Below are positions 4,602 to 49,971 of a DNA stretch of 64,000 bases, in pieces. The DNA lies in the IMG/VR virus record IMGVR_UViG_3300029309_000006, positions 1 through 64,000 of that record. One strand, given 5' to 3'. Position numbers and translations under genes: made by a program. The notes beneath the pieces are model-generated. The model worked only from the letters and a program-made list of their open reading frames with translations, was not told the origin of the DNA and did no database searches. Every line of letters starts with the position of its first letter. Positions within the stretch are counted from its first letter, which is position 1. Source of the stretch: a virus.

Positions 4602-5009
4602 ATGAAAAATATATTAGCAAAAATATTTGGTGGTGCAGGTGGTGGCATAGCAAACTCTATAAGTGGTATAATAGATAAGCATACATTTAGTAAAGAAGAA
4701 AAAGCTAGGTTTGAAAAAGAAATGACAGAAGTGTTTATTAATGCAGAAGCAGATATGCAACAGAATGTTACTGAAAGGTGGAAAGCAGACCTTGAACACG
4801 GAAACACACTTACTAAATCAGTTAGACCTATAGTGCTTTTGTTTCTTATAATATCTACTGTGCTATTAGTATTTATAGATTCAGGAAGTATAAACTTTAA
4901 CGTAGAAGAAAAATGGACTGATCTATTACAGCTTGTACTAATTACAGTAATTGGTGCATACTTTGGTGGTCGTAGTATAGAAAAAGTAAAAAATGCCAAA
5001 AAAAATTAA
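4602..5009 (+). CDS. Holin (3TM GTA-type-like)
   Basis: RWKAD...LTKSVRP, two TM segments, AYFGGRS. Confidence 0.75.
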   Translation: MKNILAKIFGGAGGGIANSISGIIDKHTFSKEEKARFEKEMTEVFINAEADMQQNVTERWKADLEHGNTLTKSVRPIVLLFLIISTVLLVFIDSGSINFNVEEKWTDLLQLVLITVIGAYFGGRSIEKVKNAKKN

Positions 5010-19843: not shown

Positions 19844-19989
19844 TGTTACAGGGCATATTAGAACTTTTGGAAATGGCAAATGGCGAAACAGAGAACATTC
19901 GTATTGCACAAGGTAAATATAAATTACCAAATAGTTTTAAAGAGGGTTTTAAATTAATTAAAAATGAAATAAAATGGGCAAAGAAGTAA
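19843..19989 (+). CDS. Small hypothetical protein (48 aa, not in ORF track)
   Basis: MLQGILELLE...IRIAQGKYKLP; fills the gap with overlapping start and stop codons. Confidence 0.55.
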   Translation: MLQGILELLEMANGETENIRIAQGKYKLPNSFKEGFKLIKNEIKWAKK

Positions 19990-21911
19990 TAGTAGATGTA
20001 AAAATTACAACTAAACAAGCACAAGAAAATATTGATGAACTCAATAAGTCTCTGATGGCTCAAGAAGACCTAATAGAAAATCTTGAATCTGATCTTAGAG
20101 GGTTTGAGAAACAACTTAGTCAAACCTCAGGAAAAGAATTAGCAAGAAGAAGTGATTTAAATAAAAAAATAACTGAAACTAAAAACAGACTAAACGAGGA
20201 GAAAGCAGGTCTCAAACAAATTAACAAAGAGAGAAAAAGAGCCAACGATCAATTAAAAGATGCTTCTAAAAATACAAAAGACTATAGTGGAGTAATAGGA
20301 ATATTAGATCGCCAAACTGGTGGTCTTATAAGTAGCACCAAAGATTTTACAGGGTCTTTAAGTTCTGCAACTAAAGGAACAAAACTTCTAAGAGTTGCAT
20401 TACTAGCAGTTCCTTTTGTATTAATAGCTACAGCTATAGCATCAATAAGTGCTGCTCTAACATCATCGGAGGAGGGTCAAGACAAATTCACTAAGTTTTT
20501 TACACAAGTTAAAGTAGTAATAGGTAATGTTACCGATCTATTTGCAGATTTTGGTAGTGCATTACTTAAATTTTTTAGTGGAGATCTCAAAGGTGCAAGA
20601 GAGGAGTTTGATAAACTCAGAGAGGGTATCGCTAACTTCGGTGAGGAAACAAAAAAAGAAATAGAACTTGCAGGTAAATTATCAGATAAAAGAGCTAAGG
20701 CTAATAAACTTGAAAGACAATTACTTATAGATCGGGCAAAAGCAGATAGAAAATTTAATGAGTTAAGAGAGAAAGCAGCAGACAAAGAGAATGTATCAAT
20801 TAATGAAAGGATAGCTGCATTGAAAGAAGCAGGTCGTATTGAAGAAGAAATAACTTTAAAAGAAATAGAAGCAGCAAAACTTAGACTAGAAGCTAAAGAG
20901 ACTGAAAACTCTTTAAGTAAATCTACACAACAAGATTTAGATGAGGAAGCACAACTAAGAGCCAAAGTCATAGAGTTAGAATCTTCAAGGCTAAAAAAAC
21001 AAAAAACGTTAACAGCTGAGATTACAACTAATCTTAGAGAGCAAAAAGCAGAGGAGAAAAGATTAGAAGACGAAGCAAATGCAGCTAAAGATGAAGCTGA
21101 TGCAGCACAATTAGAAAAAGAAAAACAACTTGCAGAATTAAAAAAACAAATAAGAGATGCAGAAGCGAGTAGTGAAGATGATAGGAGAGCCTTAGAGCTT
21201 ATAAAAATTGATGAACAATTCCAAGCACTTATAGATAAAGCTAAAGAAAATAACCTTGCAACCCAAGAACTAGAGGATGCACAAAGACAAGCCAAAATAG
21301 ATAAACAAAAACATTTTGATGAAATAGATGAAAAAAGAGAAAAAGAGCATCAAGATAAAATATCTAGTATAAAAAATATAGAAATAGAAACAGAACAAAA
21401 AATTCAACAGGCTAAACTTAGTCTCGCATCACAAACTGGTAATTTGTTAACTCAACTAGCAGGTAAAAATAAAACTGCAGCTATTGCAGGTGTTCTGATA
21501 CAAAAGGCAGCAGCAGTTGGTCAAATAATATCAAATACTGGTATAGCGAACGCTAAGGCAGTAGCTGCAAGTCCAATAACTTTAGGTCAACCATTTGTAA
21601 CAATAAATTCGATAAGTGCTGGTCTATCAATTGCATCATCATTAGCAGAAACTCAAAAAGCAATACAACAAATAAGAAGTGCTGGACCAGGAGCAAGTTC
21701 TGGAACTGGCTCAGCAGGAGGTGGTTCCGTGAATATACCAACACCACAGGCACCTGCTTTTAATATAGTAGGAAGCGATACACAAAATCAATTGGCACAA
21801 ACTATAGCTGAGCAAACACAAAAACCTGTTAAGGCATTTGTAGTTGCAGGAGATGTATCTACAGCACAAAGTTTAGACAGAAACATAATACAAGAAAGTT
21901 CGCTTGGATAA
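19974..21911 (+). CDS. Tape measure protein
   Basis: Long alpha-helical/coiled-coil, Ala/Glu/Lys-rich, with hydrophobic segments. Confidence 0.75.
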   Translation: MGKEVIVDVKITTKQAQENIDELNKSLMAQEDLIENLESDLRGFEKQLSQTSGKELARRSDLNKKITETKNRLNEEKAGLKQINKERKRANDQLKDASKNTKDYSGVIGILDRQTGGLISSTKDFTGSLSSATKGTKLLRVALLAVPFVLIATAIASISAALTSSEEGQDKFTKFFTQVKVVIGNVTDLFADFGSALLKFFSGDLKGAREEFDKLREGIANFGEETKKEIELAGKLSDKRAKANKLERQLLIDRAKADRKFNELREKAADKENVSINERIAALKEAGRIEEEITLKEIEAAKLRLEAKETENSLSKSTQQDLDEEAQLRAKVIELESSRLKKQKTLTAEITTNLREQKAEEKRLEDEANAAKDEADAAQLEKEKQLAELKKQIRDAEASSEDDRRALELIKIDEQFQALIDKAKENNLATQELEDAQRQAKIDKQKHFDEIDEKREKEHQDKISSIKNIEIETEQKIQQAKLSLASQTGNLLTQLAGKNKTAAIAGVLIQKAAAVGQIISNTGIANAKAVAASPITLGQPFVTINSISAGLSIASSLAETQKAIQQIRSAGPGASSGTGSAGGGSVNIPTPQAPAFNIVGSDTQNQLAQTIAEQTQKPVKAFVVAGDVSTAQSLDRNIIQESSLG

Positions 21912-37356: not shown

Positions 37357-37713
37357 ATGGCAATAACTTATAAATGGATAATTAACCAAATGAACGCACA
37401 TATCCAAGCCGAAGGCGAAGATAATGTAATATATACAGTACACTGGACTTATTTAGGTTCTGAAGAACACGAAGGTAAAACATACAGCGCTTCACAAATA
37501 GGTGCGCAAGGTTTTACTTATGTAGCTGGAGAACCTTTTGTACCATATGCTGATACAGAAGATTTTGAAAAAGTAGTAATAGGATGGCTTGAAGATGTTT
37601 TAGATGTACCAGCAATGGCTAAGTCTCTAGAAGATAATATTAAACTACAAATTACACCTGTAAATGAAGATTTATACTTTACATGGCAAAATCCAACACC
37701 ACCAGCAGAATAG
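37357..37713 (+). CDS. Tail-fibre-associated protein
   Basis: Homologous to 2363..2686. Confidence 0.6.
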   Translation: MAITYKWIINQMNAHIQAEGEDNVIYTVHWTYLGSEEHEGKTYSASQIGAQGFTYVAGEPFVPYADTEDFEKVVIGWLEDVLDVPAMAKSLEDNIKLQITPVNEDLYFTWQNPTPPAE

Positions 37714-37714
37714 T

Positions 37715-37749
37715 GTAAGTTTTTAAAAAAACAAGTGATACTATAATAT
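37715..37749 (+). promoter_or_regulatory. Unit B promoter-like motif GTAAGT-N14-GTGATA
   Basis: Second copy with the same spacing at 62375-62400. Confidence 0.5.
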
Positions 37750-37806
37750 AACCTATATTGCTTTGCAATATAACCAAAATATGTTTAACCTTTAAAACCA
37801 ATAAAA

Positions 37807-38115
37807 ATGACTTATTTTTATTATAAAACCAACACTTGGGGTAACTCCGACCAACAAGTGTCCGAAGATACCAGAAATACCTGGGAATTTTTTGCTAAAA
37901 AGAAAAACTGGAGAATTGTACAACTTCCTAATGGTTATTATCAAACAGAGTGTCAAAGCTTAACTGCTGATAACAAACCTAGTGGTGAATGGACTGATAT
38001 TACTAGAAGAGAAACTATTGAAGCAGCCGAAGCTGCAATCGACGCTAGTATTGAACATTATCAAAAACGTTTAGAATACGCTAAAGGTCCTAAAGTTGTA
38101 AAAACATTTAAATAA
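37807..38115 (+). CDS. Hypothetical protein
   Basis: NWRIVQLPNGYYQTE, TRRETIE; upstream of groEL. Confidence 0.65.
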   Translation: MTYFYYKTNTWGNSDQQVSEDTRNTWEFFAKKKNWRIVQLPNGYYQTECQSLTADNKPSGEWTDITRRETIEAAEAAIDASIEHYQKRLEYAKGPKVVKTFK

Positions 38116-38137
38116 TCAAATAAAATTAAATCAAATT

Positions 38138-39697
38138 ATGTCAAACGCGATTGTTAAAAATCTGAACTTTGGTTCGGATGCTAGAGACAAAGTGTTTGCC
38201 GGTATTACAAAACTTACACAAGCTGTTAGCTCCACATTAGGAGCTAGCGGTAAGTGTGTTATGCTTGAAAACAATACTGGTAAACCTATTATAACCAAAG
38301 ATGGAGTTACTGTAGCTGAGTCAATAACGTTGTTAGATCCTGTAGAAAACATGGGCGCAACGTTACTAAAAGAAGCAGCTAGCAAAACAGTAAAAGAAGC
38401 TGGAGATGGTACTACAACAGCAACAGTACTAGCTCATGCTATTTTAAAAGAAGCTTATAGTTTACATGTAGAAGAAGATGTAAGAACAATAAAAGAAGGT
38501 ATAAAAAAAGCAACTAAAAACGTAATAAAATATTTAGAATCAATATCTATACCTGTAGATGGTGATATGATAGATCAAGTTGCAACTATATCAACAAATA
38601 ATGATGCTAAGCTTGGAAAAATAATAGCTGATGCTTTTAGAGCAGCTGGTAATAACGGAGTCGTTATGTTAGAGCCAACTGACTTACCTCAAACCACGTA
38701 TGAACTGATTGACGGAGTTCCTTATGAAAGAGGTTTAAAAAATATACATTTTGTAACTAATCAAGATAAAAAAACTTCTGAACTAGATAAACCTTTGGTT
38801 TTGTTAGTTGAATCAGAAGTTGAAAATGTAAGAAAAATACAAAGTGTTTTAGAGTATGCTATAAAGCATAATAGATCTTTGCTTATTATAGCAGATGTAG
38901 ACAAACAAGTAATGTCTGCTTTAGCTATGAATAAAATAAAAGGTAATATAAAAGTAAATGTAATTGATGCACCTATTTATGGTGTAAGTAAAAAAGAAAC
39001 ATTAGATGATTTAGCTTTACTTACGGGTGCAACTATTATAAATGAGGATTTAGGAGACGATATAGATTTAATTGGGCCTGAACATTTAGGTGAGTGTTTA
39101 AAAAGTGTTACAGATCAAAACGAAACTATATTACAACTAGAAAAAACCTCAGATGCTGTAAAAGAAGTAATCGCTGAGCTAGAAATAAAACTAACTAAAA
39201 CTAAAGATCCTAATATGGTTATTAAGTTAGAAAAAAGATTAGCTAGGTTATCGGCAAAAGTAGCCATTGTTAAAGTTGGTGCAAATTCAGAAGTAGAATT
39301 AAAAGAAAAACAAGCTAGAGTTGAAGATGCTATATGCGCTACCAAAGCTGCTATAAAACAAGGTATTGTTTCAGGCGGTGGTATTGCTCTTTTAAATGCA
39401 GTTGAAAATGTGTCAGCTTCTTCACCAGGAGAAGAAATATTATTAAGAGCTATAGAAGCTCCATTTAATACTATTTTACAAAATGCAGGTATTCATGAAT
39501 CAAGAGTTAATGCTGCAGCTGGAGAAGGATTAGACGTGGTTACAGGACAAAATGTAAATATGATAGAGCAAGGTATTGTAGATCCTTTGCTTGTTACAAA
39601 AAGTGCTTTACAAAATGCTTCATCAGTAGCAACTACAATATTATCTACTGATTGTGTTATTAACAATTTAAGAGTTGGTGATGAAAGCAATAGGTAA
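38138..39697 (+). CDS. groEL: Phage chaperonin GroEL
   Basis: ITKDGVTVA, AGDGTTTATVLA, GIVSGGGIAL, GIVDP; no GGM tail. Confidence 0.97.
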   Translation: MSNAIVKNLNFGSDARDKVFAGITKLTQAVSSTLGASGKCVMLENNTGKPIITKDGVTVAESITLLDPVENMGATLLKEAASKTVKEAGDGTTTATVLAHAILKEAYSLHVEEDVRTIKEGIKKATKNVIKYLESISIPVDGDMIDQVATISTNNDAKLGKIIADAFRAAGNNGVVMLEPTDLPQTTYELIDGVPYERGLKNIHFVTNQDKKTSELDKPLVLLVESEVENVRKIQSVLEYAIKHNRSLLIIADVDKQVMSALAMNKIKGNIKVNVIDAPIYGVSKKETLDDLALLTGATIINEDLGDDIDLIGPEHLGECLKSVTDQNETILQLEKTSDAVKEVIAELEIKLTKTKDPNMVIKLEKRLARLSAKVAIVKVGANSEVELKEKQARVEDAICATKAAIKQGIVSGGGIALLNAVENVSASSPGEEILLRAIEAPFNTILQNAGIHESRVNAAAGEGLDVVTGQNVNMIEQGIVDPLLVTKSALQNASSVATTILSTDCVINNLRVGDESNR

Positions 39698-45974: not shown

Positions 45975-46427
45975 ATGTCAAAACCTAAAAAAAAATTTAA
46001 AGAAACGAAGGTTGGAAAATTCCTTCTAGGTAAATCCGGTATTATAAATGTAATAGGAGATATATTGCCTGACAAAGGTGCACTAGGTATGGTTAAAAAC
46101 TTAATAGACAAAGATCAAGACCTACCACCTCAGGACAAAGAAACAGCTCTTAAATTATTAGAGCAAGATATAATAGAAATGCAAGAAATATCAAAACGTT
46201 GGGACAGCGATATGAAATCAGATAGTTGGCTAAGTAAAAATACAAGGCCTATGACTTTAATATTCCTAACAGTATCTCTTGTTGTTTTTATATTACTAGA
46301 TGGGTTTGATATTTCATTTGGAATTGATTCTGGATGGATAGACCTTTTAAAATCCCTTTTGATAACCGTTTATGTTGCCTATTTTGGTTCTCGAGGGGCT
46401 GAAAAATTTAAATCAATAGGCAAATAA
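45975..46427 (+). CDS. Holin (3TM-like)
   Basis: RWDSD..SDSWLSKNTRP, TM segments, AYFGSRG. Confidence 0.75.
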   Translation: MSKPKKKFKETKVGKFLLGKSGIINVIGDILPDKGALGMVKNLIDKDQDLPPQDKETALKLLEQDIIEMQEISKRWDSDMKSDSWLSKNTRPMTLIFLTVSLVVFILLDGFDISFGIDSGWIDLLKSLLITVYVAYFGSRGAEKFKSIGK

Positions 46428-46700: not shown

Positions 46701-46927
46701 TGTCGTCAGTTATCAGAAAAATCAGTATCGGTTCTGATTACAAAACCGATGCAATGCATTATTCTGTTGGTCAGTCTGTTTATGGTGGTCATGTAATATC
46801 CCATATAATATCTGAACAAAAAGACAATTCTTATAACATTTTTATCAAAAAAAACAATGAGGTATTGCCGTGGAAGAAATTTAATTCTAACATGGCAATA
46901 TCCGTTGAATATGATTTAGAATATTAA
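46700..46927 (+). CDS. Hypothetical protein
   Basis: IRKISIG.DYK..AMHY; tight operon packing. Confidence 0.65.
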   Translation: MSSVIRKISIGSDYKTDAMHYSVGQSVYGGHVISHIISEQKDNSYNIFIKKNNEVLPWKKFNSNMAISVEYDLEY

Positions 46928-47532
46928 TGAACAGCTTGTTTGATTTTATTGTTGAGCCTTATGGTCAGCGATATAATAATAAAATTAAGTTAGGTGACAA
47001 AAGCTTAATAATTAACACAAAGCTAGAAAGTTTTAAATCTGTTAATAATATAGCAAAAGTAGTTGCTATACCTTTAGCTTATAAAACAGTTGTAAAACAA
47101 GGTGATTTAATTATGATTCATCATAATGTTTTTAGAAGGTTTTATGATATTAGAGGTGACGAAAAAAATAGTAGATCATTTTTTAAAGATAACTTATATT
47201 TTGTTCAGCCAGATCAAATATATTTATATAAAAATAATAAAAAATGGAAAGCTTTTGGTAATAGGTGTTTTATTGCACCCTTAAAAAACAAAGATGAAAT
47301 AAACGCTTCTTTGGAACAAAGGCTTGTTGGTATACTAAAATACGGTAATAATGCGTTAGAAGCGCTAGGAATAACCGAGGGAGACGTTGTAGGTTATACT
47401 CCATACGGAGAATATGATTTTATTGTTGATAACAAGCGTCTTTACTGTATGAAATCTAATGATATTGTAATTAAATATGAACGTCAAGGAAACGAAGAAG
47501 AATATAATCCAAGCTGGGCAAAAAGCAGTTGA
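46927..47532 (+). CDS. Tandem GroES-like protein
   Basis: Two repeats of the pattern FI.P...G/AKV...(K/E)GD.V, resembling the Cpn10 fold. Confidence 0.5.
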   Translation: MNSLFDFIVEPYGQRYNNKIKLGDKSLIINTKLESFKSVNNIAKVVAIPLAYKTVVKQGDLIMIHHNVFRRFYDIRGDEKNSRSFFKDNLYFVQPDQIYLYKNNKKWKAFGNRCFIAPLKNKDEINASLEQRLVGILKYGNNALEALGITEGDVVGYTPYGEYDFIVDNKRLYCMKSNDIVIKYERQGNEEEYNPSWAKSS

Positions 47533-47749
47533 TGAGTTAATTAAGGTTGCAAAAGAACCTATAGTGGATTCAGAAGATGATATATCTGCTGACAGACTAA
47601 AAAATGCAGCTGCTACTAAAAAACTAGCTATATTTGATGCTTTTGAAATATTGACACGTATTGAAGAAGAAAAAAATATTTTAGAAAACAAACCTACAGA
47701 AAAAAAAGAAAACACTTTTAGTGGATTTGCTGAAAGAAGATCTAAGTAA
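47477..47749 (+). CDS. Terminase small subunit (putative)
   Basis: Helical protein directly upstream of terL. Confidence 0.45.
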   Translation: MNVKETKKNIIQAGQKAVDELIKVAKEPIVDSEDDISADRLKNAAATKKLAIFDAFEILTRIEEEKNILENKPTEKKENTFSGFAERRSK

Positions 47750-49971
47750 TGTATAAACAAACATTATATAAAATAGTAGAACCTATTAAAGACCATTTAA
47801 TAAAAAGTTTTAATAAAAACAAAAAATGGGAATATGGATATAATAAAGATTATGATATTATAGTTATATCTAAAACTGGTAAAATAGGTGAAATATACGA
47901 AATACAAAACCTACGAATAGCTTTACCTTTACAAGAAAAAGTATACAAAAGATCTAATAAAAAGCTAGAACAATACTGGGAAGTATTTAAACATAGGCCA
48001 GAGTTAAAAAAAATAAAAACTATATTTGACTGGAAAGCATATCCCGACACATTTAAAAAAGATTTACACGGTTACATAGATGAAGAATTTAGAAGAAGGG
48101 AAGAAGGCTTTTGGTTTTACAACAAAGGTGTTCCTACATATATTACTGGTACTCACTACATGTATTTGCAGTGGTCAAAGATTGATGTTGGGCAAGCAGA
48201 ATTTAGGGAAGCAAACAGATTATTCTTTATATTCTGGGAAGCTTGCAAAGCAGACGCACGATCATACGGGATGTGTTATCTTAAGAATAGACGTTCAGGA
48301 TTCTCTTTTATGGCGTCAGGCGAAACTGTTAACATGGCCACAATATCAAGCGATGCTAGATTCGGTGTCTTATCAAAGTCAGGGGCTGATGCTAAAAAAA
48401 TGTTTACAGACAAGATCGTACCAATATCGGTCAACTACCCGTTCTTCTTTAAACCAATACAAGACGGGATGGATAGGCCGAAAACAGAACTTGCTTATAG
48501 AGTACCGGCGTCGAGATTCACTCGTAAAAAAATGGATAACAACGAGAAGCTTGAGGAAATTATCGGACTCGACACAACGATCGATTGGAAAAACACAGGA
48601 GACAATTCGTATGACGGGGAAAAACTCGCGCTATTGGTTCATGATGAAGCGGGTAAATGGGAAAAGCCAGAAAATATACTCAACAACTGGAGGGTCACAA
48701 AAACAACGTTAAGATTAGGTAGTAGAATTATCGGTAAATGCATGATGGGATCTACCTCTAATGCTTTAGATAAAGGAGGTAGAAACTATAAAAAAATATA
48801 TTATGACTCAGATGTTACCAAAAGAAACCGCAATGGACAGACTAGCTCAGGATTATATTCTTTGTTCATACCTATGGAATGGAACTACGAAGGATACATT
48901 GATGCTTATGGACACCCTGTCTTTGAAACTCCAGAACAAGGAGTTAAAGGAATCGATGGTCAAAAGATTGAAATCGGTGTCATTGAGCACTGGGATAATG
49001 AAGTAGAAGGCCTTAAGAACGATCCAGACGCACTTAATGAATTATATAGACAGTTTCCACGTACTGAAAAACACGCGTTCAGAGATGAAACTAAAAAATC
49101 TTTGTTTAATTTAACTAAAATTTACGAACAAATTGATTATAACGAAGATTTAAAAAGACAAGGTGTAATAACTCAAGGTAATTTTCAATGGGAAGATGGG
49201 ATTAAAGATACAAGCGTTAGATTTTTTCCTAATAAAAACGGAAGGTTTTTAATTTCATGGGTACCTGATGTACATCAACAAAATAGATATATTGTAAAAA
49301 ATGGAAAAAAATACCCGGCTAATGAGCATATGGGTGCGTTTGGTTGTGATAGTTACGATATATCAGGAACGGTAGACGGTAGAGGATCTAAAGGTTCTCT
49401 TCATGGTTTAACAAAATTTACTATGGATAATTGTCCACCTAATTTATTTTTTTTAGAATATGTTGCTAGGCCTCAAACTGCTGAAACTTTTTTTGAAGAT
49501 GTTTTAATGGCTTTGTATTTTTATGGCATGCCATTATTAGCAGAAAATAATAAACCTAGATTATTATATTATTTAAAAAGAAGAGGTTATAGAGGTTACT
49601 CTATGAATAGGCCAGATAAAACATTATATAAATTATCTGTTGCTGAAAAAGAAATAGGTGGAATACCTAATTCAAGCGAAGATATAAAACAAGCGCACGC
49701 TGCAGCTATTGAATCTTATATTGAAAGTTTTGTAGGTTACAACAACGAACAATATGGAACAATGTATTTTCAAAGAACATTAGAAGATTGGGCTGCTTTC
49801 GATATAAACAATAGAACAAAACATGATGCTTCAATAAGTTCAGGTTTAGCTATTATGGCTTGTAATAAAAATAAATACAGACCAGTTGCTGAAATTATAA
49901 AAGAAAAAGTAAATTTAAATTTTTCTAAATATGATAACAGAGGTTATAAATCAAAAATAATTAATAAATGA
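47749..49971 (+). CDS. terL: Terminase large subunit (unit B)
   Basis: KNRRSGFS, LLVHDEAGKW, MGSTSN, GCDSYD, LAENN, HDASIS. Confidence 0.85.
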   Translation: MYKQTLYKIVEPIKDHLIKSFNKNKKWEYGYNKDYDIIVISKTGKIGEIYEIQNLRIALPLQEKVYKRSNKKLEQYWEVFKHRPELKKIKTIFDWKAYPDTFKKDLHGYIDEEFRRREEGFWFYNKGVPTYITGTHYMYLQWSKIDVGQAEFREANRLFFIFWEACKADARSYGMCYLKNRRSGFSFMASGETVNMATISSDARFGVLSKSGADAKKMFTDKIVPISVNYPFFFKPIQDGMDRPKTELAYRVPASRFTRKKMDNNEKLEEIIGLDTTIDWKNTGDNSYDGEKLALLVHDEAGKWEKPENILNNWRVTKTTLRLGSRIIGKCMMGSTSNALDKGGRNYKKIYYDSDVTKRNRNGQTSSGLYSLFIPMEWNYEGYIDAYGHPVFETPEQGVKGIDGQKIEIGVIEHWDNEVEGLKNDPDALNELYRQFPRTEKHAFRDETKKSLFNLTKIYEQIDYNEDLKRQGVITQGNFQWEDGIKDTSVRFFPNKNGRFLISWVPDVHQQNRYIVKNGKKYPANEHMGAFGCDSYDISGTVDGRGSKGSLHGLTKFTMDNCPPNLFFLEYVARPQTAETFFEDVLMALYFYGMPLLAENNKPRLLYYLKRRGYRGYSMNRPDKTLYKLSVAEKEIGGIPNSSEDIKQAHAAAIESYIESFVGYNNEQYGTMYFQRTLEDWAAFDINNRTKHDASISSGLAIMACNKNKYRPVAEIIKEKVNLNFSKYDNRGYKSKIINK
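48080..48712 (+). CDS. Candidate overlapping gene in the +1 frame of terL (210 aa, signal-peptide-like N-terminus)
   Basis: Stop-free for 210 codons; terL codons shift locally to CTT/CTC/ATC/GTC. Confidence 0.5.
   Translation: MKNLEEGKKAFGFTTKVFLHILLVLTTCICSGQRLMLGKQNLGKQTDYSLYSGKLAKQTHDHTGCVILRIDVQDSLLWRQAKLLTWPQYQAMLDSVSYQSQGLMLKKCLQTRSYQYRSTTRSSLNQYKTGWIGRKQNLLIEYRRRDSLVKKWITTRSLRKLSDSTQRSIGKTQETIRMTGKNSRYWFMMKRVNGKSQKIYSTTGGSQKQR

Follow-up and report, generated by a model that had tools for sequence, protein, structure and literature searches.

A probable overprinted gene for a membrane-targeted, basic protein within the terminase gene of an uncultured clade of marine podophages

The lysis gene E of phage phiX174 is nested in the +1 frame of the essential gene D, on the same strand, and was born by overprinting; the site of action of its product is the cell envelope, and in this product a hydrophobic helix at the N-terminus precedes a basic C-terminal region. 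Genes for exported proteins also lie out of frame within a late gene and near the terminase genes in the case of the embedded o-spanins, such as Rz1 in Rz of phage lambda and 18.7 in 18.5 of phage T7, the gene order in T7 being holin, terS, 18.5/18.7 and terL. A biased composition and predicted disorder are typical of overprinted viral proteins (Pavesi et al. 2018, PMC6195259; Willis and Masel 2018, bioRxiv 10.1101/229690). In this study, we analysed an open reading frame (ORF) of 210 codons plus a TAA stop codon (48080..48712, + strand), which lies in the +1 frame of terL, the gene for the terminase large subunit (47749..49971, + strand; 740 amino acids), in positions 1 to 64,000 of the IMG/VR virus record IMGVR_UViG_3300029309_000006. 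This whole stretch of 64,000 nucleotides, which is part of a record of 95,752 bases, is called the window below. The nested ORF starts with ATG and its product begins with MKNLEEGKKAFGFTTKVFLHILLVLTTCICSGQ. In an earlier note on this DNA, made from the letters alone, it had been proposed that the ORF is a selected overlapping gene for an exported or membrane protein. Our analysis supports this proposal, as the frame is open in the majority of homologues (57 of 81), the G+C content at third codon positions (GC3) tracks the end of the ORF, and a hydrophobic core is held in place by the choice of codons. We consider it highly probable that the ORF is a real, selected coding sequence for a membrane-targeted, disordered and basic protein, and the best explanation for its presence is that it was overprinted de novo in the common ancestor of an uncultured clade of marine podophages, the nearest cultured relatives of which infect Flavobacteriaceae.

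The 210 stop-free codons reported previously were borne out by the ORF listing, in which the frame runs from ATG to TAA. The stop-to-stop run around the ORF is exactly 210 codons long, with a TAG in the +1 frame directly adjoining the start codon (48077..48082, + strand). In the rest of terL, the +1 frame contains 40 stops and the next longest run is 78 codons, while 105 stops are found in the +2 frame of the gene. The codon counts also agree with the described switch of terL to CTT, CTC, ATC and GTC: within the ORF region, CTT or CTC is used for 6 of 12 leucines, ATC for 3 of 11 isoleucines and GTC for 3 of 9 valines, compared with 3 of 35, 3 of 41 and 2 of 21, respectively, in the rest of the gene. 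The same holds for the local rise in GC, since GC3 is 0.41 in the region versus 0.18 in the rest of terL, and the overall G+C content is 0.41–0.42 over the ORF versus approximately 0.29. When synonymous codons were shuffled over the whole gene, runs of at least 210 codons were obtained in none of 20000 replicates, the maximum being 184. Shuffling within the region keeps the local codon usage and is conservative, as it retains a usage that has perhaps already been moulded by the nested ORF; for the window it gave an expectation of 5.5 stops, and 0 of 2000 replicates were stop-free (probability of a stop-free frame, P0, ≤0.0005). Per sequence, it gave 3–5 expected stops and P0 values of 0.004–0.014. 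With codons sampled from the usage of each gene outside the region, 6.7 stops were expected in the first 150 codons (P0 3e-5). As a control, we used a second run in the +1 frame (48803–49006, + strand; 67–89 codons), which stays free of stops in almost every homologue and has a roughly co-located counterpart in distant cultured phages. For this run the same sampling procedure gave 0.65–1.1 expected stops; it was rejected as a conserved gene, as the terL amino-acid sequence accounts for it. Since its P0 is 0.17–0.47, the procedure does not flag runs that are explained by the TerL protein alone. The nested ORF is more than an effect of chance or composition.

The homologue set consisted of 80 IMG/VR loci, whose TerL proteins are 74–88% identical to that of the window, and of GenBank MW202828 (64%) as the outgroup; the column numbers used below are those of the codon alignment. 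Conservation of the +1 ORF among terL homologues had been named in the earlier note as a check, and we found the frame open over the same columns in 57 of the 81 homologues, or 58 of 82 when the window is counted, despite saturated synonymous sites. Twenty-two of these 58 ORF-bearing sequences, the window included, are open over the full length (205–216 codons), and in 36 the first ~150 codons are open and stops are confined to the tail. The other 24 sequences, 23 from the ingroup and the outgroup, have at least three stops in this core (ingroup mean 5.4), and in all 82 sequences dense stops flank the block on both sides. Stops scattered through the frame of close homologues, which according to the note would speak against the gene, are thus present in 23 relatives and the outgroup, where we ascribe them to repeated loss, but not in the 57 open homologues. 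The median difference between ORF-bearing sequences at four-fold degenerate sites outside the ORF is 53%, and because 34 ORF-bearing lineages are mutually at least 40% different at these sites, the open frame must have been kept through saturating synonymous change.

Stop clearance is limited to the +1 frame, for which the mean over the 150 codons of the core is 0 stops in ORF-bearing sequences, compared with 14.6 in the +2 frame and 6–14 in the three antisense frames. In a sister clade of 80 terL genes (62–66% identical to the window), the frame is open in 0 of 80, with 2–11 stops in the core and no +1 run of more than 110 codons. This includes members with a GC3 of 0.55–0.66 throughout, which still have 2–5 stops in the core and 5–10 over the full stretch, and therefore a high GC3 alone does not open the +1 frame. 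The frame is closed in four of four cultured relatives, namely Elemovirus, Baltivirus phi19:3, Callevirus phi38:1 and Tenacibaculum phage Gundel_1.

The rise in GC3 ends where the ORF of each lineage ends. In full-length lineages GC3 is 0.40–0.60 over columns 120–335 and then falls to 0.21, in truncated lineages it is elevated only to approximately column 287, and in ORF-less lineages it is 0.15–0.30; over the C-terminal tail the values are 0.59–0.60 for full-length versus 0.22–0.25 for ORF-less lineages. Codon usage of ORF-bearing and ORF-less sequences diverges by 0.133 inside the core versus 0.043 downstream (label permutation maximum 0.044), and in the tail the Jensen–Shannon divergence (JSD) between full-length and other sequences is 0.23–0.26, versus about 0.05 outside. 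The first of these divergences is partly circular at stop-prone sites, since the classes were defined by stops, but the effects at the hydrophobic core and at polar sites, which are described next, are not.

Averaged over the ORF region, pairwise four-fold divergence is as high as elsewhere in terL and showed no constraint, which became visible by site-wise analysis only. The suppression of synonymous variation that the earlier note had suggested looking for was found over the segment for the hydrophobic core and c-region, where synonymous heterozygosity at columns 126–142 is 0.23–0.26 in ORF-bearing sequences versus 0.45–0.50 in ORF-less sequences and 0.43 gene-wide, but not over the remaining ORF. 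Within this segment, columns 130–136 (P-T-Y-I-T-G-T in terL) have T as the third base in 42–56 of the 58 ORF-bearing sequences and a mixture of A and T in ORF-less ones, two of the seven residues being two-codon residues that allow T or C. Over these columns the fraction of third-base T is 0.91; it is 0.49 at four-fold codons in other parts of these genes, and ORF-less sequences have 0.55. As third positions of terL codons double as second positions in the +1 frame, the run of third-base T yields the hydrophobic core LLILLVL, which has a Kyte–Doolittle mean of 2.6 versus 0.87 in a virtual translation of the ORF-less sequences. Further along, Tyr at column 140 is encoded by TAC in 52, Leu at column 141 by TTG or CTG in 55 and Gln at column 142 by CAG in 49 of the 58, preserving in the +1 product the Thr, Cys and Ser of a T-C-S motif that precedes an invariant Gly. 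Leu at column 179 is CTT or CTC in 58 of 58 ORF-bearing sequences and never TTA, the codon used in 18 of 23 ORF-less ones, and Ile at column 133 is ATT or ATC and never ATA in the ORF-bearing set. Past the hydrophobic core, Pro, Ser and Thr codons shun a third-base T, which would encode Leu in the +1 frame; CCT at column 232 is found in 2 of 58 ORF-bearing versus 16 of 23 ORF-less sequences, and TCT at column 228 in 1 of 58 versus 10 of 23. The tail of full-length lineages is enriched in Arg, Ser, Thr, Gly and Pro, and Leu, Ile, Val, Met and Phe together amount to 16% of it, as opposed to 40% in ORF-less virtual translations. These codon patterns indicate that selection acts on properties of the protein, that is on a hydrophobic N-terminal core and a polar and basic remainder, and that outside the N-terminal segment the constraint appears to fall on composition.

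With regard to the origin of the gene, ORF-bearing sequences occur throughout the ingroup in TerL trees and the ORF-less state arises 7–10 times, compared with approximately 21 times for shuffled labels. Together with the closed sister clade, this pattern argues for a gene that arose once, at the base of the clade, and was truncated or lost several times thereafter. GC3 returns to the AT-rich baseline after loss of the ORF, and for this reason it would seem that selection upholds GC3 where the ORF survives. A word-based search gave 32 unnamed predicted proteins with the layout of the nested protein, and a profile search of 1.84 billion cluster representatives gave 157 matches, 84 of them below 1e-30 and all of them compatible with a place within terL. 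Among 143 new representatives examined, 41 also match TerL, with junctions where a frameshift between the two frames would fall; in one example TerL 1–114 is followed by the nested protein from residue 3 onward, and P0046, P0082, P0118, P0051 and P0060 are among the chimeric calls. These 41 chimeras are presumably indel errors in assemblies. No stand-alone copy outside terL was found among the matches of the profile search, their context being deduced from the chimeric terL/+1 gene calls. The TerL clade has more than 600 IMG/VR matches, and stretches identical to the window are present in marine metagenomes of independent studies, including a 696-nucleotide contig that spans the whole ORF. One metatranscriptome library contains two contigs identical to the window inside 48087–48412; as such contigs may equally stem from terL mRNA or from DNA carry-over, they do not single out the nested gene. 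The reads of four runs show presence in marine DNA and in one RNA library, and not translation, starts or expression level.

The nested product starts with an n-region of 16 amino acids (MKNLEEGKKAFGFTTK; 48080..48127, + strand as for all parts of the ORF), which is net positive with a mean charge of +2.4 over the 58 sequences. It continues with the hydrophobic core, amino acids 17–27 (VFLHILLVLTT; 48128..48160), for which the terL codons provide the run of third-base T (or C), and with a c-region, amino acids 28–32 (48161..48175), which reads C-I-C-S-G here and C-T-C-S-G in most relatives and contains a candidate signal-peptidase I site. The middle region, amino acids 33–152 (48176..48535), is polar, basic and predicted to be disordered, with a predicted local distance difference test (pLDDT) score of less than 50, and forms with the N-terminus the core of ~150 codons that is open in all 58 ORF-bearing sequences. 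The C-terminal tail, amino acids 153–210 (48536..48709), is rich in Arg, Ser, Thr, Gly and Pro and is open in 22 of the 58 and truncated in the others. All 58 sequences offer an ATG downstream of the preceding stop and ahead of the hydrophobic core, at column 108 in 43 and at column 112 or 113 in 27. The core is retained in 58 of 58, with a length of 11–14 residues, and the maximum hydrophobicity over 19 residues (mean 2.33, minimum 1.67 over the 58 sequences) is above the usual threshold, with no second segment of this kind. Past the core the net charge is +12.6 on average, and the protein of the window has 39 Lys and Arg versus 11 Asp and Glu residues. An AlphaFold2 model based on a 44-sequence alignment has an overall pLDDT of 38.8; its sole helix is N-terminal (residues 2–38, pLDDT 50–67), and the rest is below 50.

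The positive n-region, the short hydrophobic core and the T-C-S or C-S-G that follows are suggestive of a Sec-type layout, but a Pro after C-S-G, which is present in 30 of 58 sequences, would block that cut. The earlier note had likened the N-terminus to a Bacteroidota signal peptide with Gln at +1 or to a lipoprotein signal. The positive n-region with its hydrophobic stretch stands, but neither of the more specific readings holds for the family: the residue after C-S-G is Gln in 13 of 58 sequences (the window being one of them), Pro in 30, Ala in 5 and Leu in 5, and a canonical lipobox (PROSITE PS51257-type) is found in 0 of 58, the residue before both conserved Cys being Thr or Ile. A lipoprotein and the Bacteroidota Gln rule were therefore rejected. 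Searches of the nested protein against Pfam, PHROGs and the ESM Atlas gave no match, and PADLOC gave 0 families for four members of the nested family at E values up to 1. We rejected a spanin (i-, o- or u-spanin), since there is neither a lipobox nor a PHROG or Pfam match and Pro, Gly, Ser and Thr abound in the region past the core, which is modelled as disordered; a holin, since the nested protein has no PHROG match and the phrog_3427 holin of this phage is encoded elsewhere; and a known defence or exclusion protein, since there is no PADLOC match.

Based on these data we propose that ribosomes probably initiate internally on the late terL mRNA, at the AUG of the nested frame. A conserved internal promoter was not found in the ORF-bearing relatives; a TAnnTTTG motif of the Bacteroidota type 52 nucleotides upstream (48021) is shared by only 10 of 58 and was rejected as a candidate, and because this motif is not conserved, internal initiation on the terL mRNA, a route that other nested phage genes also use, is the simplest reading. 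The product would consist of a positively charged n-region, of a hydrophobic core of 11–14 residues with small residues (T-C-S-G) behind it, similar to a Sec signal peptide or to a signal anchor at the N-terminus, and of 120–180 residues that are predicted to be polar, strongly basic and intrinsically disordered. We infer that it reaches the cytoplasmic membrane or the periplasm of the host late in infection, and our best guess is a non-essential, envelope-directed accessory role, for example in lysis timing, envelope disruption or exclusion. As 23 relatives have lost the frame and 36 have shortened it, the gene is dispensable, and a conditional role is favoured because of this frequent loss. 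Any role related to lysis is doubtful and could at most be accessory, because a holin, a lipoprotein, a transmembrane protein and a weak Rz-like match are already present in this phage. Tentatively, one might go further and see here successive life stages of a de novo gene, which was born in terL, was lengthened by a basic, Arg/Ser/Thr-rich tail and was truncated or lost at least seven times independently, and the product of which would be a new late, envelope-directed effector of Flavobacteriia phages, for example one that times lysis or disrupts the outer membrane and is unrelated to holins, spanins and known exclusion proteins.

Several points weigh against a selected gene for a membrane-targeted protein. 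Translation of the frame, like the membrane targeting and topology of its product, is something that we infer from sequence features. The synonymous sites of terL mostly evolve as fast in the ORF region as elsewhere, and consequently the identity of residues in the nested product is hardly constrained beyond the N-terminal segment; Met codons of terL dictate the invariant Cys28, Cys108 and Trp131, which are uninformative on function. The nested protein has no match to a family, a fold or a defence system. A strongly basic chain directly after the hydrophobic core suits efficient Sec export poorly, and because this chain is so basic the topology is uncertain. The phage is already equipped with a holin (45975–46427) and with spanin-like candidates, and among the close relatives are the 23 without the frame and the 36 with a shortened one.

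The basic nature of the chain would fit a protein that does not act at the envelope at all. The +1 frame might be translated and selected while the helix serves protein–protein interaction or capsid targeting and the basic chain binds DNA or TerL, as would be the case for a packaging accessory or an internal virion protein. The mean charge past the core and the excess of Lys and Arg in the protein of the window are what one would expect of such a protein, and according to the positive-inside rule the basic chain would be placed in the cytoplasm. The nested gene is moreover co-transcribed with packaging genes, and according to a section heading in Pavesi et al. 2018 (PMC6195259), the two genes of an overlapping pair often encode interacting proteins. 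We nevertheless regard this explanation as unlikely, given that the succession of n-region, hydrophobic core and small-residue c-region is the layout of a targeting signal and the sole part under clear synonymous constraint, and that no nucleic-acid-binding family or fold was found for the nested protein.

A second explanation denies that the frame is translated and sees in it a by-product of G+C-rich codon choice in terL, which might be due to mRNA structure, to translation speed over the ATPase domain, to a DNA site such as pac or to recombination with a G+C-richer phage. We consider this very improbable. With local codon usage kept, 3–5 stops are still predicted, and the sister-clade genes of high GC3 still carry their stops. 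Stop clearance in the +1 frame only, the replacement, in all 58 sequences, of Leu and Ile codons that are prone to +1 stops (columns 179 and 133), and a GC3 boundary that shifts with the stop codon of each lineage are all at odds with a mere by-product, and so is the run of third-base T, which lowers GC3 and yet is conserved. What can be said for it is that local GC3 is indeed raised and that a higher GC3 reduces +1 stops, that residue identity in the +1 product is weakly constrained, and that the frame is often lost. The least probable alternative is programmed +1 ribosomal frameshifting from terL, which would fuse the TerL N-terminus of ~110 amino acids to the +1 polypeptide: in many homologues the open +1 frame extends beyond the ATG in the upstream direction, to columns 56–102, public gene calls join TerL 1–114 to the nested protein (P0046, P0082 and P0118) and A-runs lie just upstream, but the window and about 14 relatives carry a +1 stop directly before the ATG, at which an upstream shift would terminate, a conserved slippery site was not seen, a targeting signal must be N-terminal, chimeras have many other junctions too and run in either direction, as assembly indels would produce them, and the common −1 shift would enter the other frame.

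The gene that harbours the nested ORF matches phrog_6681 (E 8e-164), and in a tblastn search it matched genes annotated as terminase large subunit in phages of Flavobacterium, Cellulophaga and Tenacibaculum; by TerL, the closest relatives in culture, with 31–45% identity, are podophages that infect Flavobacterium, Cellulophaga, Tenacibaculum and Maribacter. At terL codons ~372–386 (48862–48906; TTG TTC ATA CCT ATG GAA TGG AAC TAC GAA GGA TAC), synonymous sites are nearly fixed in ORF-bearing and ORF-less homologues alike, and synonymous heterozygosity reaches its minimum for terL (0.167). This stretch may be a nucleotide-level element, with the reservation that the search pattern MEWNYEGY falls here, so that ascertainment bias is possible. 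The portal gene follows terL, at 49968, and just 5′ of terL a 201-amino-acid protein (46927–47532) matches the co-chaperonin GroES family phrog_13932 (E 2.7e-27). The phrog_3427 holin is found in both phage units of the record, at 45975–46427 (E 2.5e-18) in the same phage as terL and at 4602–5009 (E 8e-24). Beyond the window (record positions 72955–73939) are a canonical lipoprotein of 124 amino acids, a transmembrane protein of 99 amino acids and a weak Rz-like spanin match (phrog_739, E 7.5e-4), which together are a possible spanin cluster. In the other phage unit, an antisense ORF of 272 codons (20477–21295, − strand) is nested within an ORF of 645 codons (19974–21911).

Nested genes are routinely missed in phage annotation, and in the present case the gene lies within terL, which serves as a phage marker more than any other gene. 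The phages of this clade, which are common in marine metagenomes, thereby gain an unannotated, probably membrane-targeted protein, and codon and GC patterns in their terL are not neutral. The nested gene explains chimeric and frameshifted terL gene calls in public data, which are a hazard for annotation and for phylogenies based on terL. In addition, close relatives carry full-length, truncated and decayed versions side by side, next to a sister clade that never had the gene, and this provides a rare natural series for the birth, growth and death of an overprinted gene.

In a literature search we found no description of a gene of this kind nested in terL. The closest parallel by position is T7, in which the hypothetical same-strand +1 ORFs 19.2 and 19.3 (38016–38273 and 38553–38726) lie within the podovirus terL, gene 19 (37370–39130); a full-text literature search gave no paper on them. 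Their products, of 85 and 57 amino acids, do not have the layout of n-region, hydrophobic core and basic tail, and the T7 terminase belongs to a different family. We therefore rejected them as architectural relatives, there being neither architectural nor sequence similarity. The nearest analogues are gene E of phiX174 and the embedded o-spanins, neither of which is related in sequence. The embedded o-spanins resemble the nested gene in being out-of-frame genes for exported proteins in a late gene near the terminase genes; however, they are small lipoproteins with a canonical lipobox, which is absent from all 58 sequences here, the host gene in our case is terL and not that of an i-spanin, and the nested protein has no PHROG spanin match. 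With protein E of phiX174 the nested gene shares the +1 frame, the strand and a hydrophobic helix followed by a basic region, but E is a protein of 91 amino acids and the sole lysis gene of a 5.4-kb single-stranded DNA phage, whereas the gene described here has 150–210 codons, is dispensable, shows no sequence similarity to E and belongs to a double-stranded DNA podophage of ~65 kb with a holin of its own, and its role in lysis is conjectural. Like overprinted viral proteins in general, the nested protein is restricted to one clade, has no homologues elsewhere, and is of biased composition and predicted to be disordered. Most proven cases are from small RNA or single-stranded DNA viruses, whereas here 633 nucleotides are nested in a gene of a large tailed phage, with many natural variants of loss and truncation. 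Overprinting is a known process, and what sets this nested gene apart is its length, its host gene and the number of natural loss variants.

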